Part shown: positions 8,440 to 61,287 of the stretch, piece by piece
Position numbering within the stretch: position 1 is the first letter of the stretch
Layout of the letters: every line of letters begins with the position of its first letter
NCBI GenBank assembly: GCA_019322375.1
Contig: JAHWIP010000035.1
Coordinates: 1 to 62,542, forward strand
DNA from: Candidatus Woesearchaeota archaeon
GTDB taxonomy: Archaea > Nanobdellota > Nanobdellia > Woesearchaeales > SM23-78
DNA: 62,542 nt
Reading direction: 5' to 3'
Made by a program: the position numbers and the translations under genes
Notes under the pieces: generated by a model
Seen by the model: only the letters and a program-made list of their open reading frames with translations
Databases searched by the model: none
What the model was told of the DNA's origin: nothing

Positions 8440-8476
8440 GCTTTAATTGAATATAAACTCAAAAAAATGGAAAAAA

Positions 8477-18563: not shown

Positions 18564-21500
18564 ATGGACACTAACAAATTATTAGAAATAATCTTATTCA
18601 TTTTCTTCTTACCAATCAAGATAATTCTATCTATTTTTACCTCTACTTTCTCCTCTATTTCGTTTTTCTCCTCTATTTCACCCAAAATTAATCACTTCGC
18701 TCATATTTTTTCATTTAAGGGCTGCGCCCTGCCTAGCTCAGCGTGGAAAACTTTGCGAAAGGGCGCAGTCTCTTTTTTATTTTTAATAATCCTGATTCTA
18801 TTGGTAACTTTAACCATAGCAACTCCTCAAATATCAACAGATAAGACAGAGTATGTTTCTGGAGAAAAAGTAATGATTAGTATAAACAATGCAGCAAATG
18901 ATTCTGTTTTAAAAATCATAGTGGATGATAATATTTACAGATTCATAGGAGGGTTAAACCATAAAATGGAATTTATACCAATAACCACAGGAGAACACTT
19001 TGTCAGTCTTGAATATGATACTAATAAGGAAGTGAAAAGTAGTTTTACAGTAAATCCTGCAGCAGAAACTCAAGTTGATAATAATCTAATCCAAACGGAG
19101 AATAATTTAATTGAAGCTGACAACAATCCAATCCAAGCTGATGATAATCTGATACAGCAAACCCACGGTCCAAGCATCACAGAGGCAGAGGTGCAAAAAC
19201 CAACAATTGTTAATCTAAATGAAATGCAAGAAGCAGAAGGTATAAGCATAAGCAAGGATTGGCTTGTAATAAAAAACCATCAACAAGAAGTGGTTGATAA
19301 AGAGCTTGCCTTATATGATTTCAACTTAGGAGTAAGCTATAAAACAATTGATAATGCAACCCACAATCCAGTCGGACCCTATGACACTGAAGTAAAAATT
19401 GATAATCACCCAATAAAAAAGATATTGTTCAGAAATCTTGAGGCAAAAGGAACAGAAAGTATTGAGTTAAGAATAGATGATTTAACAGACAATACAGAAA
19501 AAACTGGACAAGACAGCAAGCAATTCTATGTAATAGACCCAACCAGCCTTAACTTTACCAAAGCCTATGTAACAGTAACTGCTAAAGGAGAGAGCTTAAG
19601 AAAATGTAAAGACTGGAACTACACAACCCAAACCTGCTTTGGAACATGGGAGTATGTAATGGACATAACACCTGGCCAAAATTATACATTTTTGCTCACA
19701 CCAGAAGACCCTGCTTATAATGAGACCAGCCATGATGCAGATGACTGCTATGATGAGTCAGCAACAGCAGCATGTTCAGGAGCTCAGGTAACAGCAATAA
19801 GTGCTGATGGAGGAACAACTTATCAATTTGATAAAAGTATAGGAGAACCTATAAGAGTAAGCTTCTCAAATGAGTCATCAACCATAGATACCATAGTAGA
19901 GTGTACTGTTTATGTGAATGGTTACGACAGTGAAGGAAACAACTGGACTTTGCAACTAGGAAACTGGTCAACAAGCACTTGGGATGATGCAGGAACAGAA
20001 CAAACCGCACCAAGCCCTGAAGGCACCATAAGCTGGGATTGTACTAATCATTTTGGAACAAGCAATGATGATGCATTGTTTGACGACTTTGCTGTGAGAA
20101 TAAGTACAAATGACAGAGGAAGACCAGCAACTGCTTATATTGATCATGTATATGTCGTAATAAATTTTTCAATACCAGACACCCAAGCCCCTTATTACTC
20201 AGGCATTGTAGCTAGTCCATCAAGCCCAGCAACCTACAGCCCAACAGGAAGTTACCAGTTCAACACAACATGGCAAGACAATGAAGAAGTAAACACCACA
20301 TGGATAGAACACAACTTCACAGGAACAAGGTGGAACTACACCACAACAGGAAACAGCGGAAACATATATTATTACAACTATGGAAACATAGCAGCGGGTA
20401 GCTATGCATGGAAAATGCACGCAAACGACACAGCAGGAAACACCAACAGCAGCATGCCATGGCAAACATATATAGTAAACAAATCCAGCAGTGAAGTAAA
20501 CCTACTACTAAATGGAACTGATAATAACTTTACTATCAATAACTCTGGCAGTGTTAACATCACAGGAATGCTTATAACAGGACAAGGAAACATAACCATT
20601 TATGAACAAGGCATTCAGATTGCTTATGGCCCAAGCCCTCAAACAAGCATAAGAAGTTATAGCACACCAGGATATTACAACATAACTTTAGTGTATCAGG
20701 CAACCCAGAACTACACAACCAATAGAGAAACACATTTTGTAATAATACAAGATACAATACCCCCAGGCCCTGTTACTAATCTTAATGAGACTAAAACAAA
20801 CGAGACATGGATTCTCTGGAACTGGAGCAACCCTGGTGATGCTGACTTTGACCATGTAGAGATCTGGATTAATGGAACCTTTGAAACTAACACAACAGCT
20901 GAGTACTACAATAAGAGTGGTTTGTTTTCAGATAAAAGCTATGAAATACAAATAAGAAGTGTGGATAACTGGACAACACCTAACAAAGGATATTTTGTGA
21001 ATGACACAGCAACAACTCAGTCAAGCATAGATATTACACCGCCAATAATAACCAATATACAGAACACAAGCATAACAGATAGCTCAGCAACAATAACATG
21101 GGATACTGATGAGATAGCAACAAGTGTTGTGAAATACGGGACAAACCCAGGCAGCTATATCCATAACATAACCAATATTAGTTTGACCACAAATCACTTA
21201 GTCGTATTAACAGGATTAGACCCTAGCACAACTTATTACTATGTTGTTAATAGCAGTGATGCAGCAGGTAATAGTAATCAGAGTACAGAATATAACTTTA
21301 CAACCCAAGCTGACCAGACACCCCCTTACTACGACAATATCACTGCAAGTCCTTCAAGCCCAGCAACCTACAGCCCAAGCGGAACTTACCAGTTCAACAC
21401 CACATGGCAGGACAATGAAGCAGTAAACACCACATGGATAGAACACAACTTCACAGGAACAAGGTGGAACTACACCACAACAGGAAACAGCGGAGATATA

Positions 21501-23885
21501 CATTATTATGATTATGGACCAATAGGGGCAGGAAATTATGCATGGAAAATGCACTCAAACGACACCGCAGGAAATATAAATAGCACCATGCCATGGCAAA
21601 ACTACAAAATAAACAAAAGCAACAGCCAAGTAAACCTACTACTAAACGGAACAGATGGAAACTATAGTATTAATGAAAGCCAGAGTGTTAATATAACTGG
21701 GATAATTGTAACAGGACAAGGAAACTTAAGCTTATATCAAAATGGAACTCTTATTAGCCAAGGACCAAGTCCTTTAACAAACACAACTACTTATTATGCA
21801 CCTGGCACTTGGAATCTAAGTGCGGTATATGAAGCAACTCAGAACTATACAAGCAGCAGAGAAACACATTTCATAACAGTAAATGATACAAGAGCACCAT
21901 GGGTAACTCTTATAGACCCTCCAAATGAAGGTATTGATTATGATGGAGACGTAATATTCAAGTTCAATGTGAATGATACAGGTGCTGTTCAGAACTGTTC
22001 CTTATACATCAATGATACATATAACCAGGAAAAAGAAATCTTAACTAAAGGCGAGAACACTTTTACTGTTAATAATCTTGGAAACGGCAACTACACTTGG
22101 TATGTTAATTGCACTGATTATTTGAATAATACAAATATAAGTGTAACATGGAACTTTACAATAGAAATCAATGAGTACTTTCCAACCCTAACGCCTGTTA
22201 GTTGTTCAGATGATAGTGGAGGATGCACTGCAAGTAATCTGAACAACACACCAGAGACATGGGAAGAACATGGCACTCTAGAAAAAGGAAGTGGGCAAAG
22301 CAATTATGTGTATGTAAACCTTAGCCAGGCAAGCATACCGTTAGGAAGCACCATCCACTGGATGTATATTTTTTATGATAAATATCAGGAAACAACAGAG
22401 GGTTTTCTAAGACTTATGTGGAGGAATGGAAGCACAAATAATGTAACCATATGCAATGTTAATTTTGCAAATGCAACTCTTTATGCTCATGATTCTGTAA
22501 ATTGTAGCTTTACAAATGACACAATGCCAAGTTTAAGCCAATTAAACAATGGTCTTGAAATAATAGTTGAATTCTATTATTCAGGAAGTGCCTCAGGAAA
22601 AGATTATGGAACAGATGAAACATACATTAACCTGAAATATACAAAGGACGTGACTCCGCCAACAATAGAGCTAGTAGGGCCAAGCACTTATCACAGACCA
22701 GGAGAGGTTAACTTTACATATATCCCAACAGATAAAAATTTAGTTAACTGCACATTATATGGAGACTTTAATGGAACATGGGGACCAAATGAAACAGACA
22801 ATGCCGTGGTGTCAGGAGAAAAAGAAAACTTTCTCATAAACCTCACCGAAGGATTCTATACATGGAACGTGCACTGCTATGATATAGCTAATAATTCTGC
22901 ATTTGATGAAATAGGAGGGCCTTATAATGATGGAAACTATACTGTGAATATAACTAATCCAGACTTAATAGTAAGCCAGATAGAATTTAATGTCACTAAC
23001 AGTGAAGCAAAAGAAGGAATGAACATAACCATAAACGCAACCATTCTAAACCAAGGAAATGTTAATGTTACAGAAACCTTTAAAGTGCAGTTTTTTCTAG
23101 GAGACCCTGACAGCGGAGGCACTCAAATTAATGGCAACCAAACAATCATAGGGCTTAAGGTTAGTGAAAGCAAAACAGTAAATGTAACCTGGATTATAGA
23201 TAGTGGGGGGCCTAAAAATATATATGTAATAGTAGACCCTCCTCTTGCAACAAATGGAAGTGTTAAAGAAACAAGAGAGGATAATAACAAGAATAACAAG
23301 ACTCTGCATGTTCCTGCATACAACTACTTTTATGGAAAGGTGGAGGGTAATATTTACCTTGCCAGTTTTGAGGACTACTCATTCTACTACTACCTCAACA
23401 TTAGCAATACATCAGGAAACATCCTTGTTACCGACGAGGAAAGCAGCATAAGCTTTGGTTCGCTTCAAGCCATAGGAAGGGATACAAGCAACAACCCCGC
23501 CCCCAATGATTTTAATGATACAGACCAGGCCTTGAACATGACAAGCTATAATGATTCAATAAGATGGGTATACACCTCAGACACAGACACTCCAATAGCA
23601 ACCACAAGCATGACTCTTTACACCATGACAATCAACAACATCCCTATAATCAACAGCACCAATACAACCAACTTCCAGACAGGCATAATCTGGGATAAGA
23701 GTGATGGAAACACAGAGTACAACGGAACCCAGGACTTATTGTTTGTAACAGAAATCAGCAAGGGAAAACAAGGAGCTTATGGAATATATGATTACGAGAT
23801 AAGAGTGCCAGCAAACCTAAAAAATTATATAGCAACAGGGAGCGATGTAGTCTTTTACTGGGAGATTACAGAAATTATTGGTTAA
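18564..23885 (+). CDS. 1773-aa giant secreted adhesin (shared N-terminal head, duplicated Ig modules, two FN3 domains, CARDB-like domain, family-A C-terminal module)
   Basis: FN3-like 'ITWDTDEIATSVVKYG...LDPSTTYYY'. CARDB-like 'PDLIVSQIEF...VIVDPPLATNGSVKETREDNN'. Ends 'YDYEIRVPA...VVFYWEI'. The first ~60 codons are low-complexity; an in-frame TTG at 18753 would give a clean signal peptide 'RKGAVSFLFLIILILLVTLTIA', so the true start is uncertain. Confidence 0.85.
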   Translation: MDTNKLLEIILFIFFLPIKIILSIFTSTFSSISFFSSISPKINHFAHIFSFKGCALPSSAWKTLRKGAVSFLFLIILILLVTLTIATPQISTDKTEYVSGEKVMISINNAANDSVLKIIVDDNIYRFIGGLNHKMEFIPITTGEHFVSLEYDTNKEVKSSFTVNPAAETQVDNNLIQTENNLIEADNNPIQADDNLIQQTHGPSITEAEVQKPTIVNLNEMQEAEGISISKDWLVIKNHQQEVVDKELALYDFNLGVSYKTIDNATHNPVGPYDTEVKIDNHPIKKILFRNLEAKGTESIELRIDDLTDNTEKTGQDSKQFYVIDPTSLNFTKAYVTVTAKGESLRKCKDWNYTTQTCFGTWEYVMDITPGQNYTFLLTPEDPAYNETSHDADDCYDESATAACSGAQVTAISADGGTTYQFDKSIGEPIRVSFSNESSTIDTIVECTVYVNGYDSEGNNWTLQLGNWSTSTWDDAGTEQTAPSPEGTISWDCTNHFGTSNDDALFDDFAVRISTNDRGRPATAYIDHVYVVINFSIPDTQAPYYSGIVASPSSPATYSPTGSYQFNTTWQDNEEVNTTWIEHNFTGTRWNYTTTGNSGNIYYYNYGNIAAGSYAWKMHANDTAGNTNSSMPWQTYIVNKSSSEVNLLLNGTDNNFTINNSGSVNITGMLITGQGNITIYEQGIQIAYGPSPQTSIRSYSTPGYYNITLVYQATQNYTTNRETHFVIIQDTIPPGPVTNLNETKTNETWILWNWSNPGDADFDHVEIWINGTFETNTTAEYYNKSGLFSDKSYEIQIRSVDNWTTPNKGYFVNDTATTQSSIDITPPIITNIQNTSITDSSATITWDTDEIATSVVKYGTNPGSYIHNITNISLTTNHLVVLTGLDPSTTYYYVVNSSDAAGNSNQSTEYNFTTQADQTPPYYDNITASPSSPATYSPSGTYQFNTTWQDNEAVNTTWIEHNFTGTRWNYTTTGNSGDIHYYDYGPIGAGNYAWKMHSNDTAGNINSTMPWQNYKINKSNSQVNLLLNGTDGNYSINESQSVNITGIIVTGQGNLSLYQNGTLISQGPSPLTNTTTYYAPGTWNLSAVYEATQNYTSSRETHFITVNDTRAPWVTLIDPPNEGIDYDGDVIFKFNVNDTGAVQNCSLYINDTYNQEKEILTKGENTFTVNNLGNGNYTWYVNCTDYLNNTNISVTWNFTIEINEYFPTLTPVSCSDDSGGCTASNLNNTPETWEEHGTLEKGSGQSNYVYVNLSQASIPLGSTIHWMYIFYDKYQETTEGFLRLMWRNGSTNNVTICNVNFANATLYAHDSVNCSFTNDTMPSLSQLNNGLEIIVEFYYSGSASGKDYGTDETYINLKYTKDVTPPTIELVGPSTYHRPGEVNFTYIPTDKNLVNCTLYGDFNGTWGPNETDNAVVSGEKENFLINLTEGFYTWNVHCYDIANNSAFDEIGGPYNDGNYTVNITNPDLIVSQIEFNVTNSEAKEGMNITINATILNQGNVNVTETFKVQFFLGDPDSGGTQINGNQTIIGLKVSESKTVNVTWIIDSGGPKNIYVIVDPPLATNGSVKETREDNNKNNKTLHVPAYNYFYGKVEGNIYLASFEDYSFYYYLNISNTSGNILVTDEESSISFGSLQAIGRDTSNNPAPNDFNDTDQALNMTSYNDSIRWVYTSDTDTPIATTSMTLYTMTINNIPIINSTNTTNFQTGIIWDKSDGNTEYNGTQDLLFVTEISKGKQGAYGIYDYEIRVPANLKNYIATGSDVVFYWEITEIIG
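20184..20760 (+). repeat. First copy of a ~190-aa module duplicated within the 1773-aa gene
   Basis: 'YYSGIVASPSSPATYSPTGSYQFNTTWQDNEEVNTTWIEHNFTGTRWNYTTTGNSG...' recurs 1134 nt downstream. A 72-nt run is identical (20289-20360 = 21423-21494). Confidence 0.9.
21318..21894 (+). repeat. Second copy of the ~190-aa duplicated module
   Basis: See 20184-20760. The two copies are separated by two FN3-like domains. Confidence 0.9.
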
Positions 23886-23955: not shown

Positions 23956-24957
23956 GTGGGTGATATTATAAGGAAGAAAAAGAGCAAAGTAAAGGATTTC
24001 TTTAAACATAGCAAAAAAATGGTGCAAGCACCAAAAGAATTACCAGAGATAGGAGTAAAGACATCACAAACTCATCTTGTGCCTCCAAAACAACAAGAGA
24101 TGACACAAACACCTCAAAAAAGTATAGAACCAGAACCCCCATCCCCCCAAGAAAAACCCAAAAAAGAACTTAAGCTGCCACAGATAGAACCTTCTGCATT
24201 ACAAGAAAAAAGCCAAGCAGCTTTGCCAAAAGATGTGAGCATTCATGAGGATGACCTAAAACAATTTGAAGAAGCAATTAATAACATAAACATAGACATG
24301 GTACACACAGATGCACCAGCTCTGCACAGTCCTAGCACTGAAAAGGAAGCAGATTATTACAAACCTTCAGAAATGGGCGAAGGCTATTTCTCAGAAATAG
24401 AGCACTACGTAAAAAACAAGAATGTAAAAGAAATAATAGATGATATACTCAAAAAGGATTTTTTAACCAGCATGAAAGACTATCATGATACAAAAGCCCA
24501 GGGAAAACCTTTTTACCTGCACGAACATGACCTAAAACACAAACTCAAGAAAAAGATGAATCATCTTAGAAAGCTAGAAGAAGAATGGCATAACCTAAAG
24601 ATGCAAATAGAGGACAAAGAAAGAAAAAAGAAAGAAGCAGAAAAAGGAATAGACCATGAAAGCCAGGAACTAAAAGAACTGTTCAGGCAGGTAAAGATAA
24701 ATCATTTGCTTGAGCAACAAGCACCAAAAGAACATTATTTCAAGCTTAAAAACGGGCAAGAGCTTAAGAGTCTTAATGACCTGAGAAAAGCCCTGGAATA
24801 TATATCAGACGATGAGTTCAACCACCACATGAATCCAGAGAAAAACGACTTTGCATCCTGGGTCAAAGAAGCCCTTCAGAACCAGGAGTTATACGAAAAA
24901 ATAAAAGATGCAAAGAATAAGGAAGAGCTGCAAGAAGCACTACAGAATCCTTTTTAG
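23956..24957 (+). CDS. Cytoplasmic P/Q/E-rich and coiled-coil protein ending in the same ~55-aa module that heads the KaiC-like ATPase
   Basis: C-terminus 'YFKLKNGQELKSLNDLRKALEYISDDEFNHHMNPEKNDFASWV' aligns with residues ~17-60 of ORF 2127-3191. No signal peptide. The start (GTG 23956 or ATG 24019) is uncertain. Confidence 0.65.
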   Translation: MGDIIRKKKSKVKDFFKHSKKMVQAPKELPEIGVKTSQTHLVPPKQQEMTQTPQKSIEPEPPSPQEKPKKELKLPQIEPSALQEKSQAALPKDVSIHEDDLKQFEEAINNINIDMVHTDAPALHSPSTEKEADYYKPSEMGEGYFSEIEHYVKNKNVKEIIDDILKKDFLTSMKDYHDTKAQGKPFYLHEHDLKHKLKKKMNHLRKLEEEWHNLKMQIEDKERKKKEAEKGIDHESQELKELFRQVKINHLLEQQAPKEHYFKLKNGQELKSLNDLRKALEYISDDEFNHHMNPEKNDFASWVKEALQNQELYEKIKDAKNKEELQEALQNPF

Positions 24958-24992: not shown

Positions 24993-25754
24993 TTAATTGC
25001 TTATCTCTGCATAAAAGTAATAAGTAGTCCCTGGGCCTGTGGAATTCTCAGCAACAATCAACTGGAAGTCATAAGTAACATTGGTGCCAGAAGCATTATT
25101 ATCAAAACCCCATGCATCCTGGTCAATAAAAGTATGGTAGATTAAGTTTGTGTTATCATACAGCAGAATCTCTTGGAAATAAGCAGACTCGCTTATGGTT
25201 TGAGCACTGCCATTCACATAAGTGGCTGTGCTAGGGCAAGTGCCATTAGCAATAGTACCAATCGATGTGGAAGTATTGATTTCTTTGTGAATAGTATAAT
25301 TAAAAGTATTATTAATATTATCTGAGGCCCCACTGCTCATTCCAAAAAAAGTATTTTCAGAAGTAAGAATAGTATCATTAGCACACTTAAGATTATCCCA
25401 AGCAACACTATCATTCCTGCTAGCATAAATATTGCCTGTAAAACCAGAACTATTTATAACCCACTCATAAATGCTCCAGCCGTCTGAATCCCTTAAAACA
25501 AGAGCACCAGTAATGTTTCCTACATAAGCTTTCCAAGCATTATTTTGTTGAGTAACATCAAGAGTGACTGTGGTTATTGTCCCTCCATCATCAGCCCTGC
25601 CTTCAGGAGTAACACTATATGTCTCTGTACTTAGATTAGTGACATCAGCACCCTGCGGGTCTGCACTGCTAAAATTAGCAATCATAAAAATAAGGTAAAT
25701 AGCTAAACCTAATATAAGAAAAGGATACTTTAGCTTATTACTAACTTTCTTCAC
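24993..25754 (-). CDS. Family-A small secreted protein A1 (subtype 'AWKAYVGN.TG')
   Basis: Signal peptide ending 'FSSA|DPQGA'. C-terminus 'YDFQLIVAEN...TTYYFYAEISN'. A GTG at 25754 sits 3 nt after SD 'GAGGTGAT', so the ORF-track ATG at 25772 is probably upstream of the real start. Confidence 0.8.
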   Translation of the reverse strand: MKKVSNKLKYPFLILGLAIYLIFMIANFSSADPQGADVTNLSTETYSVTPEGRADDGGTITTVTLDVTQQNNAWKAYVGNITGALVLRDSDGWSIYEWVINSSGFTGNIYASRNDSVAWDNLKCANDTILTSENTFFGMSSGASDNINNTFNYTIHKEINTSTSIGTIANGTCPSTATYVNGSAQTISESAYFQEILLYDNTNLIYHTFIDQDAWGFDNNASGTNVTYDFQLIVAENSTGPGTTYYFYAEISN

Positions 25755-25795
25755 TGCATCACCTCGTTGCAAGCATCATAAAAATATAAATAAAA

Positions 25796-25815
25796 AACAG
25801 GGCAAAAACCCTGTT
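25796..25815 (-). terminator. Hairpin plus T-run after A2
   Basis: The minus strand reads GAACAGGGTTTTTGCCCTGTTTTTT (7-bp stem, then T6). The A1 TATA-like region follows immediately. Confidence 0.45.
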
Positions 25816-25827
25816 CTTTTTCTCTGT

Positions 25828-26610
25828 TTATTCTATCTCTGCCCAAAAAAAGTATGTTGTTGTTGTGTCTTCAAAACCGTCCTGACCATTCTCTGCTACT
25901 AATAACTGGAAGTCATGGGTTTCGTTGTCAAAACCTATGATATCAGTGTTGTTGTTATCATCATTGTTCTCTATGATTGTTGTGAAAAGAAGGATGTCCT
26001 GGTCGGTTAGCAAGATATTCTCAAAGTTATCACTCACTTGCTGTAAGCCATACTGGTAAGTATTCGTGGCCACACAAGTACCTGTGGATGATATGTTTAC
26101 TGTGCCTACAAAAAAGTTCTTGTCCAAACTGCCTGTAAAGGTTTCATTAATGCCATCCTCGTCATCATCCTCAATACCAAACCAGCCTTCTGCTGCATCA
26201 ACATCAAAATTACCATTACTACCATCATGATGAAAACACCTGATACCAGTCCAGTTCACACTATTATTTATAGAGGCATAGATCTCTCCTTTTGGTTCAT
26301 TCGTAGTCCAGTTGTAAAACACATAACCATAAACATCCTCTAATGTTAAGATACCTGAGATCTCTCCATAGTAGCCCTGCCATGCCTTGGTTGTGGCTAT
26401 TGCTGTAAGATTAATCTCTGTTACATTACCTGCTTCTGCGCTTATGTTGGCAGGTTGATAACTAGATAGGTTTGGTCTTGATGAGTCAATATAATCTATA
26501 CTCCTTACTCCATATGGCACATCAGAGTCTGCCCATACAAACACTGTCAGTAGACTAAAAACAGCTAGAAAGCCTAATATAAGTATAGTTGTGCTTATTT
26601 TCTTTTTCAT
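25828..26610 (-). CDS. Family-A small secreted protein A2 (subtype 'W.G.YGE.SG')
   Basis: The ATG at 26610 is preceded by 'GGTGAT' and gives signal peptide 'MKKKISTTILILGFLAVFSLLTVFVWA'. The ORF-track extension to 26703 runs into a TATA box. C-terminus 'HDFQLLVAEN...TTYFFWAEIE'. Confidence 0.8.
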   Translation of the reverse strand: MKKKISTTILILGFLAVFSLLTVFVWADSDVPYGVRSIDYIDSSRPNLSSYQPANISAEAGNVTEINLTAIATTKAWQGYYGEISGILTLEDVYGYVFYNWTTNEPKGEIYASINNSVNWTGIRCFHHDGSNGNFDVDAAEGWFGIEDDDEDGINETFTGSLDKNFFVGTVNISSTGTCVATNTYQYGLQQVSDNFENILLTDQDILLFTTIIENNDDNNNTDIIGFDNETHDFQLLVAENGQDGFEDTTTTYFFWAEIE

Positions 26611-26702
26611 ACTATCACCGTTGCAAGTTTTTTTAGTTTTAAGTGCAAGCTTAAGGTTTTTGGTTAATATAAACCAAATTAATATACTAATAGGTATACC
26701 CA

Positions 26703-26717
26703 TATATAAATGTTTCG
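26703..26717 (-). promoter_or_regulatory. Archaeal BRE/TATA promoter (CGAAACA-TTTATATA) upstream of A2
   Basis: The minus strand reads CGAAACATTTATATA. The same 15-mer occurs at 38141-38155, with one substitution at 30123-30137. Confidence 0.6.
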
Positions 26718-26747
26718 GTTTGGGGGTTTTTTAAAGAAAAAACAAAT

Positions 26748-27686
26748 TTATGGGCTCTCAGCAGCAAAAACTACTGTTCCATTACAAACTCCAAACGGGT
26801 TTGTAGTGAGATTAATATGAAGCCTCCAATAAGTAGAATTAACCATGTAAACACTAGGCTGGGTTTGCTTTTCAACTGTAAGAGCAGGAACAATCACAGG
26901 ACTTCCTGTTACTGATGTCATATCAGCATAAAGTGCAGTAGAGTTAAGACTATACCTCTCATTAGGCAAGGTTAGGTTTCTTTGTTCACAAACCATGGCC
27001 AGACCAGCATATAATACCTCATTTTCTCCTCCAAAACCATAAACACTCACATTAATAGGGACATTGCCAAAATTAGTAACATTAGCCTCAATAAGGTCAG
27101 ACGTGTTTGTTACAGGCAGATTACCAAAATCAATCACATCAGTAACATTCAAGGCTAGCAGAGCAGAGATTGTGGCATTATTATAATCATTATCAGTAGA
27201 GCCATAACTATCATTCACAGTAACATTTGCTTCCCAAGTGCCATTAACAGCATAATACCATACATCAAAGGCACAAGTCCAATTAACATAATATCCACTT
27301 ACAGCCCCTGACTGGTTACAGCTAGTATTAGTATAATGAGAATTATTATTATCAGGATCACTTGATTCATTTGTATAATAATAAAAAGTACCATTTATAA
27401 GATTAACATCTCCTCCTCCATTATAATCACGAATTTCAACCAAACAACTCACAGTGTAAGTGCTTCCTGCAGTCAGGGTGATGGCTGTTCCATTATTACA
27501 AGTAATATTAAGAATTTCAGGGTAAGAGTTAGTAACATTTACTGTTGTGCGCACACTCACATTCTCATAATTACCACTAGGACCCCAGCTAGTCACAGGA
27601 ATGCCTTTAAAAACTAGGAATAAAATTAATAAAAGAAAGCCTGCTAGAAAAATCTTCTTTTTATGACTAATAACTAACGAAGTCAT
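26748..27686 (-). CDS. Family-B secreted two-domain protein B1
   Basis: The ATG at 27686 is preceded by 'GAAGGAGAAG'. After the signal peptide come 'WGPSGNYENVSVRTTVNVT' and 'NVTNFGNVPINVSVYGFGGENEVLYAGLAMVCEQRNLTLPNERYS'. Ends 'CNGTVVFAAESP'. Close paralog of 37111-38049. Confidence 0.8.
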   Translation of the reverse strand: MTSLVISHKKKIFLAGFLLLILFLVFKGIPVTSWGPSGNYENVSVRTTVNVTNSYPEILNITCNNGTAITLTAGSTYTVSCLVEIRDYNGGGDVNLINGTFYYYTNESSDPDNNNSHYTNTSCNQSGAVSGYYVNWTCAFDVWYYAVNGTWEANVTVNDSYGSTDNDYNNATISALLALNVTDVIDFGNLPVTNTSDLIEANVTNFGNVPINVSVYGFGGENEVLYAGLAMVCEQRNLTLPNERYSLNSTALYADMTSVTGSPVIVPALTVEKQTQPSVYMVNSTYWRLHINLTTNPFGVCNGTVVFAAESP

Positions 27687-27739
27687 AACTTCTCCTTCTG
27701 CCAATAATTTGATCATAATAAAAACACCAAAAATTATTT

Positions 27740-28495
27740 TTATGTCCCTAATTCTAAGTAAAAAAAGTACTGGGTTCCTGTGCCTGAACGGTTCTCAGGG
27801 ATGATAGCCTGGAAATCATAGGTAGTAGTATTGTCAAACCCTACCCTGTTATTGTTTATAATTGAGGTATACACCATGTTTATGCCGTCATGCAGTGCTA
27901 CCTCTTGGAAAACTGCGCTAGGACTAGGAGTTTGAACAGTGTCATTTACCCATAAGGCTATAGCATAGCATGTGTTCTCTCCAAGATTATTTTCTCCTAC
28001 AACCAGGGCTGAGTGGTTTGTAGCATTAAAAGTACCATTAACATTATCAGTGGCTGTGCTAGACAAGCCAAAAAAGGTATTGTCTGCACTCATCTCTGTA
28101 AGAGTAGCACAGGTTATTGCTCCACTACTAAAATTAAGCGAATCATTCCTTGAAATATAAACCTCTCCATCAACAGAAGTACCTATAGGCCATTCATAAA
28201 TACTAAAATTATTTGAGCTTTTTAACACATAGGTTCCTGTAACATTCCCAACATATGCTTTCCAAGCATCATTCTGCTGCTCAAGGTCCAGAACCAAGGT
28301 TATAATCTCTCCACCATCATCAGTCCTGCTATCAGGGGTTGTATTAGGTCCTGTATCAACACTAGGGGCTCCTGAGACTGTTGCTCCTTGAGGAATAGCA
28401 TTGGCAAGATATAATGATAAGCCACAGAGCACTAAGGTTACTGCTAAGTATAATAATAAAATTCCAGATTTTTTTGCTTGTGACTTATTATTCAT
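27740..28495 (-). CDS. Family-A small secreted protein A3 (subtype 'AWKAYVGN.TG')
   Basis: Signal peptide ending 'LANA|IPQGA'. C-terminus 'YDFQAIIPEN...TQYFFYLELGT'. Confidence 0.8.
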   Translation of the reverse strand: MNNKSQAKKSGILLLYLAVTLVLCGLSLYLANAIPQGATVSGAPSVDTGPNTTPDSRTDDGGEIITLVLDLEQQNDAWKAYVGNVTGTYVLKSSNNFSIYEWPIGTSVDGEVYISRNDSLNFSSGAITCATLTEMSADNTFFGLSSTATDNVNGTFNATNHSALVVGENNLGENTCYAIALWVNDTVQTPSPSAVFQEVALHDGINMVYTSIINNNRVGFDNTTTYDFQAIIPENRSGTGTQYFFYLELGT

Positions 28496-28560
28496 TTTCC
28501 TTGCCTCTATCTATTTCACCCTATTTTACTTCTTCACTCTCATCTTTTTCCTTTACTGGT

Positions 28561-29289
28561 TTAGCTTAGCTCAATGAAAAAGTACAGTGTGGTTGTTCCT
28601 ACAGTTTCTGATTCCCCTACTAAGAGCTGGAAGTCATGGGTATTGGTGTCAAAACCTTGTTCAGTGTCATTTATCAGGGTTGTATAAACTGGGTATCCGT
28701 TTGAGTCTGTTAGCAGTATCTGGTAAAATGCGTCTGTAGATGGAGCACTGTTAACATAGGTGTTTGTGCTGTTACAACCACTAATGCCTGATACTGTTCC
28801 AACATTAAAAGATGGGTGGTTATTATTGCTATATGTTCCTGCAATATCATCTGGGTCAGTGCCTGCTGTAATCCCAAGGGACCCTTCAATAGCAGTTATT
28901 TCTGCAGCATTGGCGCATCCGATTCCACTCCAGTTTAGAGTACTGGCATTAGATGCAAACACCTCTCCTTCTGGTGGGCCTATACCTGACCAGTCATAGA
29001 ACACATTGCCACTGCTGTCTCCTAAGGTAAGGTTGCCTGATACCTCTCCGTAGAAACCAGCCCAATGGTTTGTTATGGCTTGTCCAGATATGTTCATCTC
29101 AGTTACATTACCTGCCTGGACTGCTGTGCTCTGGGAGGATGTGAAATTAGTAAGGTTAGCTCTGCTTGTGTCACCCACATCAATATTTGTTGCTCCCTGC
29201 ACTCCAAAGACAGAAGTTATCCCTGCATAGAGCAATCCCAAAACTATCATTGCCAAAACTGCTTTTTTTGCATATCTATTATATTTCAT
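28561..29289 (-). CDS. Family-A small secreted protein A4 (subtype 'W.G.YGE.SG')
   Basis: SD 'GAGGTGA' lies upstream. Signal peptide 'AVLAMIVLGLLYAGITSVFG'. Contains 'HWAGFYGEVSGNLTL'. C-terminus 'HDFQLLVGES...TTLYFFIELS'. Confidence 0.8.
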   Translation of the reverse strand: MKYNRYAKKAVLAMIVLGLLYAGITSVFGVQGATNIDVGDTSRANLTNFTSSQSTAVQAGNVTEMNISGQAITNHWAGFYGEVSGNLTLGDSSGNVFYDWSGIGPPEGEVFASNASTLNWSGIGCANAAEITAIEGSLGITAGTDPDDIAGTYSNNNHPSFNVGTVSGISGCNSTNTYVNSAPSTDAFYQILLTDSNGYPVYTTLINDTEQGFDTNTHDFQLLVGESETVGTTTLYFFIELS

Positions 29290-29303
29290 TTTACCTCTTC
29301 ACC

Positions 29304-29966
29304 TCACGTGGTTTTTTTATTTGAATTATCCTCCATTTTCTCCTCTTCTCGAGGAGTTATTAGATTTGAAGGATCATAAAGCACATAGAACTTAGAAGCT
29401 GGATTGTTAAGGAGTTTCTTGAACTCAGACTTTGTCTTTACATTAAAGAAAACTGTTTTTGAAACTCCTTCTGGGTTTTTTATTAAACTCTTCCTTAATT
29501 CTTTTTTTAATTCCAAAACATCTGAGATTACTAGTAGATTAATTTCATTAGATTTCCCAAGGTCAAGCAGAATTACATCGATTTTATTTATGTATTCCTC
29601 TATATACCAGAATGCTTTTTCAAGATAGTAGTGGAGTTTGGGATTGTCAAGAAACCAGATTTTAAGTATTACTTTATTGTACTCAGATAACTTGTGAAAC
29701 TTTTTTTCTACAAAGTCCTGGGTGCTTGCTATTAAGAAAGAATGATTTCCAGCCAGAGAGTAGAGCAGCCTGGGCTGCCCTTTGTCCCTGTTGGAAATCC
29801 TTTTGCTCTGAACAAGACCAGCCATCTCAAGAAGTCGTAGTTGCTGGCTTATGTTTGCAACAGAGGTGTTGGAAAGTTTTGCCAGCTGCAGCGGGGACTT
29901 GCTTCCTGAAGAGAGTATCTTCAGGATATCCCATTTAGAGGCCGTAAACAAAGTTTCTTGTTCCAT
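29304..29966 (-). CDS. ArsR-type winged-helix regulator with an unknown C-terminal domain; first gene of the A4-A3-B1 unit
   Basis: 'KWDILKILSSGSKSPLQLAKLSNTSVANISQQLRLLEMAGLVQSKR...PRLLYSL' is a classic ArsR/SmtB-like wHTH. Its stop is 14 nt before the A4 start. Confidence 0.7.
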   Translation of the reverse strand: MEQETLFTASKWDILKILSSGSKSPLQLAKLSNTSVANISQQLRLLEMAGLVQSKRISNRDKGQPRLLYSLAGNHSFLIASTQDFVEKKFHKLSEYNKVILKIWFLDNPKLHYYLEKAFWYIEEYINKIDVILLDLGKSNEINLLVISDVLELKKELRKSLIKNPEGVSKTVFFNVKTKSEFKKLLNNPASKFYVLYDPSNLITPREEEKMEDNSNKKTT

Positions 29967-30078
29967 TTTGTTTTTTTTATGCTTGCAACGGTGTTGATCA
30001 TAAACACAATTCCTACCGTTTTTAGACGACAGGAATTGTTTAAAGGCTTCCAGTAGCGAATCTCTATTTTTTGTTACC

Positions 30079-30098
30079 TTGGTATACTTTTTGGTATA
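30079..30098. promoter_or_regulatory. Direct repeat TTGGTATA-N4-TTGGTATA at the predicted transcription start of the ArsR-like operon
   Basis: Copies at 30079-30086 and 30091-30098, immediately downstream (minus strand) of the TATA at 30123-30130. Confidence 0.4.
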
Positions 30099-30122
30099 AC
30101 AAAATCTAAATAACCATACTTG

Positions 30123-30137
30123 TATTTAAATGTTTCG
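30123..30137 (-). promoter_or_regulatory. BRE/TATA promoter (CGAAACA-TTTAAATA) for the ArsR-like/A4/A3/B1 unit
   Basis: The minus strand reads CCGAAACATTTAAATA, ~155 nt upstream of the ATG at 29966. This implies a long 5' leader. Confidence 0.55.
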
Positions 30138-30336
30138 GTTTTTAGTTAACTACTGTACTTAATCAGATTATGAATTAAGAAAATAAAGAAAATACACTAA
30201 TTAATTAAAAACTGAATTAGAGGGCTACAGGGCTTAAAAAAGCAGAATTTAAAAAATGTGCTGACAGGGAAATAAAAAGATTCATTGCTCGCTCACTAAA
30301 CGCTCGCAAGGAAAAAACTAAAAAGAAAAAATTTGC

Positions 30337-31092
30337 TCAGCCCAGCTCTGCATAGAAATAATAAGTTGTTGATGTTTCTGTAGGGTCATCAGGAACTATG
30401 ATTTGGAAGTCATAATTAGCCAAATCAAAGCCCTGTTGATTGTTTTCTAAGATAGTTATAAACACCATGTTGGTTCCATCAAACATAAGGATTTCTTGAA
30501 AGCTTGCATCTTCGCCAGGGGCTTGGGATGTATCATTAACATAAGTAGCTATAGCATAGCAAGTGCTGTTATCAACTGTGCCTGTTCCTCCTATTACAAA
30601 TGATTTATGGGTTGACTCATTAAAGGTGTTGCTAATACTGTCATCACTGCTGGAATTGATGTTTAACAAGGTCTCCTCTGAAGAGATATCCCCGGCATCT
30701 GCACAAACCACAGAGCTAAAGTTAACAGAGTCATTCCTTGAAACATATACCTCTCCTTGAACTGTAGTCAGTGTCCAATCATATATTGTAAAGTTGTTGG
30801 AGTTATCAAGGGTCATTTTTCCTGATATGTTCCCGACATAAGCCTTCCATTTACTCGTCTGGGAAGTAACATTGAGCAACAAAGTTGTAAATGACCCTCC
30901 TGCAGCAGTATGAGAGTCTGCTGTTCTTACACTAGCAGTTTCTGTTTGATTGGATGTAATCGTTGCGCCTTGTGGTGCTGCCAAAACCAGGCTTTTATTT
31001 ACAAAGAATGCAAAAGTTAATATTAAAATGAGTAGGAAAATAATGCTTACCTTCTTGGTTACACTAATTACATTATTATTTTTTATATTCAT
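30337..31092 (-). CDS. Family-A small secreted protein A5 (subtype 'AWKAYVGN.TG')
   Basis: Signal peptide ending 'VLAA|PQGA'. Contains 'KWKAYVGNISG'. C-terminus 'YDFQIIVPDD...TTYYFYAELG'. The start overlaps the upstream regulator gene by 17 nt. Confidence 0.8.
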   Translation of the reverse strand: MNIKNNNVISVTKKVSIIFLLILILTFAFFVNKSLVLAAPQGATITSNQTETASVRTADSHTAAGGSFTTLLLNVTSQTSKWKAYVGNISGKMTLDNSNNFTIYDWTLTTVQGEVYVSRNDSVNFSSVVCADAGDISSEETLLNINSSSDDSISNTFNESTHKSFVIGGTGTVDNSTCYAIATYVNDTSQAPGEDASFQEILMFDGTNMVFITILENNQQGFDLANYDFQIIVPDDPTETSTTYYFYAELG

Positions 31093-31606
31093 CTTTTTTA
31101 TCTTTACCTAACTTTTTTTTGGCTCTTGAACAAACAGTCCAGATTGTTCTTGGGTCCTTGTTGAGTAAGCGTGCAATCTCAGAGTATTTCATGCCAAGAT
31201 TCCTTAGAAACTGTGCTAATGCTTCTAGTGTGCTGATTCTTCTGTCTTTAAAGATGCTAACAGGGATTTGTACTTCTGTTTCCTCAAATAAAAAGGCTTT
31301 TTTCTTTTCTATAGATTTGTAAGTAAGCCATGTTGCTCTAGGATCTCTATTTAGAAGTAATGCTATTTGCTTGTTGCTTTTGTTAAGGTTCTCTTTTAGG
31401 TATTTTACAATTGTTTGTAAAGGAGTTAGTTTGTTCTGAAAAATCGTGCTTGGCAGATATATCTCATCTTCGTATTTCAGGCTTAGGTAAGATACCGAGG
31501 GTATATCAATATCTTTATGCTCCTCAAGAATATAACTAGAAATCTTTTGACTAGATATATTGTACTTTAGTTTATCCCTGCTTATATAAAATTCCCTTTT
31601 TTCCAT
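31076..31606 (-). CDS. Tandem-HTH DNA-binding protein (two sigma70-region-4/LuxR-like repeats)
   Basis: Internal duplication: '..TPLQTIVKYLKENLNKSNKQIALLLNRDPRATWLTYKSIEKK' and '..STLEALAQFLRNLGMKYSEIARLLNKDPRTIWTVCSRAKKK'. TATA-to-ATG spacing suggests a leaderless transcript. Confidence 0.65.
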   Translation of the reverse strand: MEKREFYISRDKLKYNISSQKISSYILEEHKDIDIPSVSYLSLKYEDEIYLPSTIFQNKLTPLQTIVKYLKENLNKSNKQIALLLNRDPRATWLTYKSIEKKKAFLFEETEVQIPVSIFKDRRISTLEALAQFLRNLGMKYSEIARLLNKDPRTIWTVCSRAKKKLGKDKKDEYKK

Positions 31607-31797: not shown

Positions 31798-33591
31798 TTG
31801 GAAGTGGTCAGAACAAGAAACAATTTTACAAGAATCTTATTCCTATCTATACTGAGCCTGGTTATAGTTTTTAACTCTGTTTTAGCTCAACCAGACCACC
31901 TCATATCCAACTCAGCAGACTGGAGAGATGTTTACTCTACAGTGATATATGCAAACCTTTTGGGGGTGTCCTCCCACTTCTTAACCAGCACACCCCACGG
32001 CCCAATACTACTTTATGAAATACCCAAAACCAAGCAAAACATACAAATAATAACCTCTGCTGATAAACCTTTTGTTGTTGGATATGAATCTTTTATCAGG
32101 GGTCGGGGGTATGAAAACCCTGAAGAACTAATATTTGATGAAGCAAATCTTGAACTGGCCGAAAGATTGCCTAGTATTAATAAGTATATAGTAATTGATG
32201 ATTCTTATGGTTATAATGCAATCGCTGTTGCTCCTTTTGCTGTAAAAGCAAAATACTATGTGTTGCTTGCAGATGACAGGAACATAGGAGATGTTGATGA
32301 CTTCTTAAGCACAAAAAACGTGGATGATATGATAATATACGGGCATGTTGATAGGGAAGTAAGAAGCGCCCTTGTTAAATATAATCCTGAGATAATAAAC
32401 AGTGAGACAGGCAGCAGATTTGAAAATAATATGATGATAGTAGACAAGTTCTCTGAGATAGGAAGCATAAAACAGGTGATTCTAACAAACGGTGAGTTTA
32501 TAGAGGCAAGCATGATGAGCGGAAAAGAGCCTGTTTTGTTCATAGGAAGAAACAATGTGCCTGCTGAAATAGAAGAGTACATAAAAAATAGGGACATAGA
32601 AATAGGCGTTCTTATTGGCAACGAGCTGATAGGTACAGCAACTGCTATAAGAAGGCAGGTAGGGATTAGTGTGTTTGTTAAGTTTGCAAGAGGATCCAGA
32701 GTTCCAGGAGGCACAATTAATCCTGTCGAAGACCTGGATAGGTTTCCAATGCCAAGTTACCAGTTAAGCATGAGCATTCAATCAATAGATTATAACAAAG
32801 CCACTGGCAGTCTGGAAGTTACATATAATAATAATGTTGACCTTGCAACTTACTTCAAATCAACTATTACTATAAAAAATGCTGCAGGTGAAACCCTTGC
32901 GGTTGTGGGTGATGAAAATACTGTGTTTATTGACGGCGGCGAGACCAAAACCATTGTTTATGAAGTTGACTTATCTGAAGCAGAAAATACAGAAAACCTG
33001 ACTGGCGAAATATACACTATCTACGGAGAGTCAAAAACATCATTGGAAAACGCTCTGAGTGGAGATTTCAAAATAAATATAATCACAGTTTTAGATGATG
33101 CAGAGATTGAAATAACAGATTTGGTTTATGATAAAAGCAGAGGAAGATTCCTGGTTACCATTGAAAACATCGGCAAGGTTGATGTTTATGTTGATGTAGA
33201 ATTAGTAGATTTGTGGTTTGATGGAGAATACATCACTGTGAGTGCTGATGATATTGAAAAAATAGGTGTTGGCAAGAAAAAGACAATTCCAATAAAAATT
33301 AAACTAGAGGAAGAGGATTTGGAGGATAAAAGAAATGAGGAAATAACAGTGCGTGGTGTTTACGGAGAAAGAAAACATGCTCTTGTGAAAAGCAAGACCC
33401 GTACTTTTAAACTTAGGCTCAAGAAAGCAGTAACTTGGTGGTATATACCTATCATCATTGTTGTAGTTATAATAATCCTCCTCTTACTATTGCTCTTATT
33501 AAAAAGAAGGAAAAAGAAATGCCCCAGGTGCAGAACAAAGAATGATAAGAATGCTGCTCATTGTAAGAAGTGCGGGCATTCATTACGATAG
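31798..33591 (+). CDS. 597-aa surface protein: signal peptide, three alpha/beta repeats (cell-wall-binding-repeat-2-like), beta-sandwich domains, TM, cytoplasmic zinc ribbon
   Basis: Signal 'ILFLSILSLVIVFNSVLA'. Threefold repeat pattern ('DWRDVYSTVIYANLLG..', 'GYNAIAVAPFAVKAKYYVLL..', 'FIEASMMSGKEPVLFIG..'). TM 'WWYIPIIIVVVIIILLLLLLLL'. C-terminal 'CPRCRTKNDKNAAHCKKCGH'. The domain naming is tentative. Confidence 0.7.
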   Translation: MEVVRTRNNFTRILFLSILSLVIVFNSVLAQPDHLISNSADWRDVYSTVIYANLLGVSSHFLTSTPHGPILLYEIPKTKQNIQIITSADKPFVVGYESFIRGRGYENPEELIFDEANLELAERLPSINKYIVIDDSYGYNAIAVAPFAVKAKYYVLLADDRNIGDVDDFLSTKNVDDMIIYGHVDREVRSALVKYNPEIINSETGSRFENNMMIVDKFSEIGSIKQVILTNGEFIEASMMSGKEPVLFIGRNNVPAEIEEYIKNRDIEIGVLIGNELIGTATAIRRQVGISVFVKFARGSRVPGGTINPVEDLDRFPMPSYQLSMSIQSIDYNKATGSLEVTYNNNVDLATYFKSTITIKNAAGETLAVVGDENTVFIDGGETKTIVYEVDLSEAENTENLTGEIYTIYGESKTSLENALSGDFKINIITVLDDAEIEITDLVYDKSRGRFLVTIENIGKVDVYVDVELVDLWFDGEYITVSADDIEKIGVGKKKTIPIKIKLEEEDLEDKRNEEITVRGVYGERKHALVKSKTRTFKLRLKKAVTWWYIPIIIVVVIIILLLLLLLLKRRKKKCPRCRTKNDKNAAHCKKCGHSLR

Positions 33592-34271: not shown

Positions 34272-34439
34272 ATGGAATTCAGAAGAAAACTCTATAGTCG
34301 GGGAAGCAGCTATGAGACAACAATACCCATGCCCTTATTATTCTCACTTGATAAAAACAAGAAACACGAAGTAGTCTTTGTGTTTGACCCAGATTCAGAT
34401 AAATGGTTCATAAAAATAGAACAAGAAAAAGAAAAATGA
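34272..34439 (+). CDS. Unannotated 55-aa AbrB/SpoVT-like small DNA-binding protein
   Basis: Not in the ORF track (under 60 aa). Translates to 'MEFRRKLYSRGSSYETTIPMPLLFSLDKNKKHEVVFVFDPDSDKWFIKIEQEKEK'. 'R.L..RG.SY..TIP' resembles the swapped-hairpin AbrB motif. Its stop overlaps the downstream ATG as ATGA. Confidence 0.5.
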   Translation: MEFRRKLYSRGSSYETTIPMPLLFSLDKNKKHEVVFVFDPDSDKWFIKIEQEKEK

Positions 34440-35113
34440 ATAAGAAAAACAGAAAAACAGAGGAAGTCTTAATTTTAGTAACAGTCCTCTTGCTCCTGAC
34501 TCTTAGCATGATAGTGTTTAACAAAGTTCTTCCAGTCTCTTTTGAATCAATAACAGGAAAGGTTGTGACAAGAGTTAATATTACTCAGCCTCCTGTTGTT
34601 AATTGTAGCTTCACTCTTTATAATGGGCTTAACTTGGTGTCATTCTTTTGCATACCCAACATGATATCACCAACAGATGTAGTTGGTTCGCTTTCAAATT
34701 TAGAAGGTGTTTTTGATTATCAAGAAGGCAATAGTGATGCATGGACCATCTATAATCCAAACTTACCAAGCTTTGTGGTTCAAGATTTGACAATCATGAG
34801 CAGAACAGAGGGTTATTGGATTAGAATGAGAGCAAACGAAAATTTCTTTTTAGACGGGAGAGTCAGACTTCCAAACAACATTCTTCTTGTTCCTGGCTGG
34901 AACCTAGCAGGTTATCCAACAAATCAGATTAAACTGGTTAATCAGTCATTCAGTTCAATTGATGGCAATTTTACAGAAGTACGAACTTATAACGCATCAA
35001 GTGGGAGCTTTATTAGCTATGTCCCTGGTGTTGGAGGAGCTCTTACTCAGACAGAGCCTTATTATGGTTATTGGATTAATGCTACAGTGAGCGAGGTGTG
35101 GGTTGTTGATTAG
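34436..35113 (+). CDS. Secreted/anchored ~225-aa protein with two 'G(W/L)NL..(Y/F).P ... GYWI' modules
   Basis: The ATG at 34436 (ATGA coupling with the small ORF) gives 'MNKKNRKTEEVLILVTVLLLLTLSMIVF'. Repeats include 'NGLNLVSFFCIP...EGYWIRM' and 'PGWNLAGYPTN...YYGYWINA'. Confidence 0.65.
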   Translation: MNKKNRKTEEVLILVTVLLLLTLSMIVFNKVLPVSFESITGKVVTRVNITQPPVVNCSFTLYNGLNLVSFFCIPNMISPTDVVGSLSNLEGVFDYQEGNSDAWTIYNPNLPSFVVQDLTIMSRTEGYWIRMRANENFFLDGRVRLPNNILLVPGWNLAGYPTNQIKLVNQSFSSIDGNFTEVRTYNASSGSFISYVPGVGGALTQTEPYYGYWINATVSEVWVVD

Positions 35114-61204: not shown

Positions 61205-61287
61205 AGTTAAACTCCAGACTGGCAAGAACAAAGAATTAGTTAGGGTTTATAAAGGTTGTTGCAATAATATATCTAATAAAGAAAAAA

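Follow-up and report, generated by a model that had tools for sequence, protein, structure and literature searches.

Two families of predicted secreted proteins in a conserved gene order as candidate modules of an extracellular structure in Woesearchaeota

A 62,542-nucleotide contig of a Candidatus Woesearchaeota archaeon (JAHWIP010000035.1, assembly GCA_019322375.1), the whole of which is called the window here, encodes five paralogous small proteins with an export-type signal, termed family A, and beside them members of a second family, B. Family A occurs as two subtypes, T1 and T2, and has no membrane anchor; it shares a C-terminal module with giant proteins encoded close by, and its genes keep a conserved order in related genomes. 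Sequence and gene context suggest that a heteromeric extracellular structure, specific to Woesearchaeota-type DPANN archaea, uses A and B as its module for building and docking. This reading is put forward tentatively, its chances being in our judgement a little below even.

Five family A genes in a conserved order

An initial annotation, made by a model from the letters of the window, had proposed five paralogous genes on the minus strand, and all five open reading frames (ORFs) were found where it had placed them. Their products align over the full length, with 31-45% identity to the first sequence and 25 invariant columns, and reach E values of 1e-68 to 1e-100 when a hidden Markov model (HMM) of the family is searched against all window ORFs; they are related far beyond chance. 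For a4, whose ORF reaches an upstream ATG at 26703, homologs favour the start at 26610. The motifs W.(A/G)(Y/F)(V/Y)G(N/E)(I/V)(T/S)G and (Y/H)DFQ, which had been listed as shared, occur in the five proteins, and PQGA does follow the signal in three of them. The C-terminal pattern T.Y(Y/F)F(Y/W/I)(A/L/I)E(I/L) had been called invariant; it held in four of the five, the 28561 protein (a2) ending in TTLYFFIELS with L for Y. Across 265 relatives the C-terminal consensus is T-T-Y-Y-F-Y-[VA]-E-[LI]-x(1-2)-end, and the motif lies 0-3 residues from the protein end in every one of them. Two cysteines are present in 197 of the 246 free-standing members.

The family is large and lineage-bound. Its alignment profile finds 288 proteins among 90%-identity clusters and at least 1,324 clusters at 50% identity, and all matches that carry a name are called 'hypothetical protein'. 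A pattern scan of the GTDB species representatives yielded 264 relatives, all of them on contigs of metagenome-assembled genomes (MAGs) of Woesearchaeota, Nanoarchaeota or Nanoarchaeia, or in MAGs whose labels are evidently generic or wrong. Labels of the latter kind on family-bearing contigs (L008, L009, L014, L072 and others; protein P0049) include 'uncultured Methanosarcinales', 'Euryarchaeota archaeon SM23-78', 'Saccharibacteria' and 'Bacteroidota'; they are probably generic or due to mis-binning, since the gene content around them matches the Woesearchaeota cluster.

The subtypes were assigned by motif, WKAYVGN for T1 and W.G.YG for T2. In the window the order is HTH176-a1(T1) and ArsR-a2(T2)-a3(T1)-B1-a4(T2)-a5(T1), where HTH176 and ArsR stand for two genes of helix-turn-helix (HTH) type, and a second B gene lies further along (Table 1). 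Three loci fetched by exact protein match keep this order: a divergent gene for a 597-amino-acid (aa) membrane protein, HTH, A, ArsR, A, A, B, A, A, a convergent gene for a 333-aa protein, and a giant gene. For each window A gene the best match in other genomes occupies the corresponding position, with 51-69% identity between such orthologs (69% for a1 in L003 and L005, 57-60% for a4) as against 28-45% between paralogs within one genome, which indicates that the five A genes are old, distinct orthogroups. The pairing of a T2 gene with a following T1 gene, first noticed twice in the window, proved to be general. Among the GTDB loci, 57 of 62 A-A-B triplets read T2-T1-B, ArsR stands next to T2 50 times, and HTH176 next to T1 45 times. 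In the 33 GTDB loci of at least 15 kb, B is present in 30, the 597-aa protein and HTH176 in 28 each and the ArsR-type HTH in 24; the 236-aa gene occurs in 23, and the 333-aa gene also in 23.

Predicted export and fold of family A

How would these proteins leave the cell, and what keeps them there? Each is predicted to begin with a Sec-type signal peptide, as first proposed. Across 192 relatives the signal reads [VATSG]-x-A and then x-P-x-G-[APV]-x-[IV]-[TS]; at position -3 stands V, A, T, S or G, and at -1 a small residue in 92%, which is Ala in 70%. This pattern obeys the classical (-3,-1) rule of signal peptidase I, from which we infer cleavage, and because it directly precedes x-P-x-G, the predicted mature N-terminus is x-P-x-G-[APV]-x-[IV]-[TS], with a near-invariant Pro and a Gly whose invariance is to be read with the anchored search pattern in mind. 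The hydrophobic segment before it (median 18 residues) might also be taken for an uncleaved signal anchor; this was judged less likely because a strong A-x-A-type motif directly precedes the conserved mature N-terminus.

The initial annotation had further described the proteins as lacking a membrane anchor and a class III signal, as covered with sequons and as having no assembly machinery nearby, and these descriptions are borne out. A 19-residue hydropathy scan finds only the N-terminal hydrophobic segment in the A proteins, and the same is true of B and of both complete giants. The conserved motif A/x-P-x-G (the slash marking the predicted cut) sits after the hydrophobic segment, unlike in type IV pilins and archaellins. 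Signals for sortase or archaeosortase (LPXTG, PGF-CTERM, PEP-CTERM) are absent from the A proteins, which end in YYFYAEL-x(1-2) with no C-terminal hydrophobic segment. N-glycosylation sequons number 3.7-5.5 per 100 aa in the five proteins, and the family mean of 3.96 is twice the chance value of 1.8 obtained after shuffling. In a Pfam scan of window ORFs of at least 150 aa, four far-right ORFs being left out, there was no assembly ATPase, prepilin peptidase or sortase near the cluster and no Peptidase_S24/S26 (signal peptidase) match; likewise no prepilin peptidase, PilB/ArlI-type ATPase or PilC/ArlJ platform was found in the A cluster or among its conserved neighbours. Two ATPases of the window are distant: a KaiC-like one lies 22 kb from the A cluster (2127-3191, plus), and a PIN-T2SSE-KH ATPase, the sole secretion-ATPase-like match in the window, lies 28 kb away (59321-61231, minus) and is missing from the gene lists of the three loci that were fetched with called genes.

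The beta-rich character first assumed for the family agrees with an AlphaFold2 model of a3, built on a 50-sequence alignment. Its predicted local distance difference test (pLDDT) value is 82, and the core (residues 63-249, mostly above 90) consists of about 11 strands and two short helices. Between the signal helix and the globular domain runs an unstructured linker of about 30 residues; residues 33-63 stay below a pLDDT of 50 although they hold invariant residues, and the N-terminal segment (residues 34-62) is the sole part of A that is conserved yet poorly ordered. The C-terminal strand carries four aromatic residues in a row and so has two hydrophobic faces, a feature compatible with an interface but no proof of one.

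Comparisons with known proteins were uniformly negative, in keeping with the first impression of an unrecognised family. No Pfam or NCBIfam family matched the five A proteins, and no Pfam family recurred when 50 members were scanned singly. Foldseek with the a3 model returned nothing at an E value of 1e-3 or better, either from the PDB (best E 0.37) or from BFVD (best E 0.067); the weak top matches are a CelQ module and adenovirus fibre knobs (E 0.4-2, probability at most 0.13, TM-score below 0.25). Family A is thus unannotated and has no detectable relative, and the literature offered no paper describing it, nor one linking Woesearchaeota to donor-strand systems. A viral or capsid origin of the jelly-roll-like domain was considered and set aside, as there was no BFVD match and the setting is a chromosomal, lineage-wide cluster.

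The same searches bear on the idea that A belongs, as a remote and so far overlooked member, to the TasA/AbpA/CanA jelly-roll superfamily and polymerises by N-terminal donor-strand complementation with no chaperone, in the way demonstrated for bundling pili, threads and cannulae of archaea. Much in the A system would suit such a member: a Sec/signal peptidase I signal, beta-rich glycoprotein subunits of about 20-25 kDa, several paralogs per genome, no chaperone or ATPase nearby, and a mature N-terminal segment that is conserved yet unfolded in the monomer model. However, the family A profile gave 0 matches at E values up to 10 against all PDB sequences, including the TasA entries 8AUR and 5OF1; PF12389 was not matched by any of the 50 members at E values up to 1; and HHalign with a TasA sequence checked against 8AUR gave a probability of 0.1%. 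No TasA-superfamily entry stands in the top 50 Foldseek PDB rows, and no match of any kind falls below E 0.37, in a search that can miss distant beta-sandwich kin. No signal peptidase gene is adjacent, and the 'N-terminal' motif is internal in the fusion proteins described below. We consider this membership very unlikely.

Shared modules and the proposed assembly

The link between the small A proteins and larger ones, the main new result, begins with the HMM of family A, which weakly matches the last 180 or so residues in each of the two giants beside the cluster. From the window and 28 fetched loci, 31 such C-terminal modules, called G-type, were aligned, and this alignment matches family A by HHalign with a probability of 98.7% (E 4.4e-16) over 163 columns, at A positions 71-250; residues 34-70 of A have no counterpart in it. 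Between the end of a G-type module and that of its ORF lie 0-5 residues (32 of 32 cases), and giants of this type are found in the 28 fetched loci. The module of the window giant lacks the Cys pair, as judged by eye. In addition, 19 of the 265 family A relatives (about 7%) are long proteins (325-2359 aa) whose very C-terminus is formed by the module; the motif classifier could assign a subtype in 18 of them, and it was T2 each time. Towards the N-terminus these proteins differ (right-handed beta-helix/NosD, LamG, DUF2341, Ig repeats), and the 'mature N-terminal' motif GP.GA.NITV..SER is internal in them. The family and its linkage to giant proteins, which the initial annotation had noted in the window, are thus strongly conserved in related genomes, both in the fetched and in the GTDB loci, so that the grounds on which the initial annotation would have given up its reading do not apply. 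A module shared in this way by the C-termini of giants and other long proteins is what co-assembly or docking would lead one to expect.

Some of the T2 fusions have a further feature. Two match the Nup98-type S59 autopeptidase (Pfam Nucleoporin2), one above the curated cut-off and one just below it, and a V.HFS.YS motif lies about 330 residues before the C-terminus in most of the T2 fusions inspected (P0194, P0201, P0190, P0196, P0214, P0217 and P0225, all from outside the window). Nup98 S59 autopeptidase cleaves at HF/S. These sequences suggest that S59-bearing T2 fusions may be autoproteolytic, non-covalently held surface proteins of DPANN archaea; with the S59 region upstream, the A module would be on the fragment that is retained after cleavage. 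The 'HFS.YS' motif was not found in the window or in the fetched loci.

Family B, the constant companion of the T2-T1 pair, has at least 421 relatives among 90%-identity clusters, none of them named. Its sequon density is 7.1-7.7 per 100 aa, each window copy has six cysteines, and its mature N-terminus, 'GPSGNYENVSV', has the P-x-G feature in common with A. Homology between A and B was considered and dropped (HHalign 24% only). In an AlphaFold model of a3 and B1 joined as a pseudo-chain, made on a verified block-diagonal alignment with 68 and 40 rows, B1 takes the form of two all-beta domains of immunoglobulin (Ig)/fibronectin type III (FnIII) type, and Foldseek with this model finds only generic tandem FnIII/Ig proteins, the best being RbmA at E 1.6e-5; CsuE and Saf are among the generic Ig matches only.

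The proposed structure can be outlined as follows. Five A proteins (three T1 and two T2) and two B proteins would be exported by Sec, and cleavage by signal peptidase I would leave them with the conserved N-terminus x-P-x-G-A-x-(I/V)-T. Both A and B would be heavily N-glycosylated. As they have no anchor, mutual binding in a fibre or lattice would keep them on the surface; the fixed T2-T1-B gene unit may hint at the stoichiometry. The giant Ig/CARDB-repeat proteins, likewise anchorless, would plug into the same scaffold through their C-terminal divergent A or B module, and the 597-aa type I membrane protein would provide the link to the membrane. The occurrence together of anchorless, glycosylated proteins that share terminal modules and of a conserved membrane protein that lacks them fits the view that the A and B modules bind each other at the surface and also retain the giants there. 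That the modules bind one another, and in what manner, we infer from this pattern; the form of a fibre or lattice is likewise suggested by architecture and gene context. The initial annotation, which had taken the A proteins for self-assembling fibre or lattice subunits, joined for example by complementation through the C-terminal strand, is in this way supported in part. It seems unlikely, though worth stating, that the N-terminal extension or the doubly aromatic C-terminal strand adds to the sheet of a neighbouring subunit.

Several points weigh against such an assembly. In the monomer model the A core comes out with high confidence as a fold that looks complete, C-terminal strand included, and this strand belongs confidently to the subunit's own core both in the a3 model and in the A+B pseudo-chain. 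The pseudo-chain has a predicted template modelling (pTM) score of 0.44 and a mean pLDDT of 79, with no confident arrangement between its domains. In it the N-terminal extension of A rises to a pLDDT of 68-75 and forms a two-residue beta-bridge at 36-37, and the N-terminus of B stays below 50; alignment depth differed from that of the a3 model, and the rise may reflect only the deeper alignment. Genes for a chaperone, an usher or a sortase are missing from the A cluster, as are those for a dedicated signal peptidase and a secretion ATPase. Since Foldseek, Pfam and HHalign found no known polymer subunit that is alike, the case for assembly is made from architecture and context, and all data come from MAGs, the system being known here through its genes.

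Could the A module instead be an adhesive, lectin-like binding head? Free A proteins would then be short binders, secreted or loosely attached, of glycans on the host or on the cell's own surface, and the giants would present the head on a long Ig-repeat stalk by which these presumed ectosymbionts attach to a host. Proteins that bind a host are a need of DPANN archaea, and such a head would fill it. The module is beta-rich, extracellular and disulfide-stabilised (the two cysteines counted above), its conserved polar residues D150, T155, H161, D203, D227, Q229 and E248 could form a metal or sugar site, and the weak Foldseek matches given above are carbohydrate- or receptor-binding proteins. These matches are insignificant, however, and a distal head leaves the retention of giants and A proteins without an anchor unexplained. 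Five orthogroups in a fixed T2-T1-B order suggest a stoichiometric complex rather than redundant binders; in the G-type modules the core and the C-terminal motif persist despite loss of the Cys pair; and in the S59 fusions the module belongs to the C-terminal fragment, and the variable region lies at the opposite end. We regard a lectin-like head as rather doubtful.

The module always closes the chain, whether it occurs free or on a long repeat-rich stalk, and this also invites comparison with C-terminal oligomerisation knobs, to which the A module would be alike in logic: the heads of C1q and TNF, the C-terminal domain of BclA and the adenovirus fibre knob. Such a knob would bundle or trimerise the stalks of the giants, and the free paralogs would form closed hetero-oligomers, for example T2-T1-(B). 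The paralogs are in a fixed gene order, as are the genes for the A, B and C chains of C1q, and the insignificant Foldseek matches repeatedly include fibre heads of adenovirus and aquareovirus. There is, however, no significant structural similarity to any such knob, and surface retention of anchorless proteins would again go unexplained, so that we hold this proposal to be distinctly unlikely.

Extending the reading of A and B as modules of one extracellular structure, one may imagine a polymer of T2-T1-B units, built without ATPase, chaperone or sortase, into which giant variable adhesins plug by their A or B module, in some lineages with a head made detachable by S59 autoproteolysis, the whole serving as an attachment organelle of uncultured symbionts. 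This is speculative, and we think it improbable rather than probable. If true, it would be a new class of archaeal surface polymer, with an A fold that has no solved relative and a tandem Ig-like B. Woesearchaeota and their DPANN relatives are abundant but uncultured, and a life attached to hosts is presumed for them; to our knowledge, next to nothing is known about their envelopes or the structures by which they attach. Families A and B, their strict gene order and the modules that end the giants make up a concrete candidate for the attachment machinery of these archaea, and a C-terminal A or B module offers a handle for finding surface-displayed proteins in DPANN genomes.

Genes around the cluster

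The features are collected in Table 1. The 597-aa gene, transcribed divergently from the A cluster, encodes the most plausible membrane link, a candidate anchor or platform. Its product is 46-68% identical in other loci, with 64-68% for the two closer ones, and exceeds A in conservation; it is nearly free of sequons (0.3 per 100 aa), unlike its surroundings, and has no sequence relative in the PDB. Its N-terminal part resembles cell-wall-binding-repeat-2-like sequences by eye; Pfam reported none.

Other type I membrane proteins with a signal peptide and at least one transmembrane (TM) helix in the C-terminal part, all unannotated, are encoded at 3203-7093 (plus), 7090-8439 (plus), 35103-37097 (plus), 38136-40943 (minus) and 41396-42649 (plus), and at least three of these five have long cytoplasmic coiled-coil or charged tails. 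The 664-aa protein among them (35103-37097) has its 32 cysteines in repeated 'C..G..C..G.DCGGPC' units. The KaiC-family ATPase mentioned above has an N-terminal segment weakly like DUF5752, and a similar segment ends the 333-aa protein; two short KaiC-like or DUF7504-like proteins are encoded at 8447-9004 and 14958-15506 (both plus). The KaiC/DUF5752 proteins are a possible cytoplasmic partner system of the surface genes. Between two blocks of surface-protein genes lies a gene for an 832-aa protein (9093-11591, plus) with an N-terminal Ser/Thr kinase domain of eukaryotic type (Pkinase, E 6e-54) and a large uncharacterised C-terminal region.

Table 1. Family A and B genes, modules and neighbouring genes in the window
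Feature	Position	Strand	Description
a1	30337-31092	minus	251 aa, subtype T1 (WKAYVGN); upstream HTH gene overlaps by 17 nt
a2	28561-29289	minus	242 aa, subtype T2 (W.G.YGE); opens the T2-T1-B triplet, 14 nt past the ArsR-like gene
a3	27740-28495	minus	251 aa, subtype T1; protein chosen for the AlphaFold model
Parts of a3	residues 1-33, 34-62, 63-251		Signal peptide (helix), N-terminal extension and beta-rich core, respectively, by AlphaFold model and alignment
a4	25828-26610	minus	260 aa, subtype T2
a5	24993-25754	minus	253 aa, subtype T1; GTG start, alternative TTG at 25772
B1	26748-27716	minus	322 aa, third gene of the T2-T1-B triplet; predicted secreted, sequon-rich
B2	37111-38049	minus	312 aa, family B paralog
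G-type A module	23316-23885	plus	Last ~190 aa of the 1773-aa giant 18564-23885; directly after a CARDB domain (aa 1465-1578)
Second G-type A module	1410-1955	plus	C-terminus of a giant cut by the window edge (ORF 9-1955); by HMM and HHalign
B module of a giant	50199-50933	plus	Last ~245 aa of the 2745-aa giant 42696-50933; hmmsearch E 3.9e-72, aa 2502-2745
HTH176	31076-31606	minus	176-aa cytoplasmic HTH protein (sigma-70 region 4/HTH_38 type, Pfam); partner of the first T1 gene
ArsR/HTH_5-type winged-helix protein	29304-29966	minus	220 aa (Pfam); conserved leader of the T2-T1-B unit; 43-76% identity in other loci
597-aa type I membrane protein	31798-33591	plus	Signal peptide, ~520 aa outside, C-terminal TM helix, cytoplasmic zinc ribbon
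333-aa coiled-coil protein	23956-24957	plus	Cytoplasmic, weak DUF5752-like C-terminus; conserved between the A cluster and the giant gene
Gene pair beside the 597-aa gene	34403-37097	plus	Conserved; one protein of 236 aa, secreted or held by an N-terminal anchor, and one of 664 aa, rich in Cys (32 Cys), with TM helices and cytoplasmic coiled coil

Comparison with known surface systems

Conserved terminal modules on otherwise varied proteins are also seen in cohesin-dockerin cellulosomes and in SLH or CWB2 anchoring, where free scaffold-side genes lie together as well. The logic of the A system is homotypic, unlike in those systems, since its docking module and its free subunits are the same fold, and Pfam scans of the window proteins gave no dockerin, cohesin, SLH or CWB2 signature. 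As secreted, beta-rich proteins with predicted glycosylation, the A proteins would fit the role of an archaeal S-layer protein, but no known S-layer domain was detected in them. Such proteins make up the 2-D lattice of the envelope and share no universal sequence definition. RbmA, the biofilm-matrix scaffolding protein of Vibrio cholerae, is like B in being secreted with two tandem FnIII/Ig-like domains; this likeness is generic to tandem beta-sandwiches, antibody light chains scoring nearly as well, and there is no sequence relation.

Nearest in logic are the chaperone-usher pili and the chaperone-free archaeal filaments of the TasA superfamily; membership of A in either is unsupported. In CanX-type cannulae, multiple homologous subunits of about 20-25 kDa are present. 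The CanX subunit is a beta-rich glycoprotein with a Sec/signal peptidase I signal and has no chaperone or ATPase nearby (PMC12518558). With these filaments, which include AbpA bundling pili, Saci_0406 threads and CanA/CanX cannulae (PMC12518558), family A shares a conserved N-terminal segment, export, beta-rich subunits, paralogs and the lack of machinery nearby, but it has no sequence, profile or Foldseek similarity to them. The SipW-type signal peptidase I gene that often adjoins TasA-superfamily genes was not seen among the window ORFs scanned, and the TasA superfamily has no counterpart of family B, of the strict T2-T1-B order or of giants that end in the module.

Chaperone-usher pili of the Fim/Pap kind have, like the A cluster, several paralogous small secreted subunits in a fixed gene order, and their tip adhesin, an N-terminal binding domain followed by a C-terminal pilin domain, is built similarly to the giants and fusions with an A module. 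Adhesins of FimH type have no donor strand, and the G-type modules of the window giants have no N-terminal extension. The differences are these: the host is an archaeon, there is no outer membrane, the A cluster gave no Pfam match to a PapD-like chaperone or an usher, the A-only model had no Foldseek match to an Ig-type pilin, the T2 fusions keep the N-terminal motif internally, and strand exchange in A is hypothetical. The kind of system most resembled, a surface structure of secreted subunits with module-bearing adhesins, is already known, and what is new here are family A with its two subtypes and five old orthogroups, family B, and the strict gene order that joins them.

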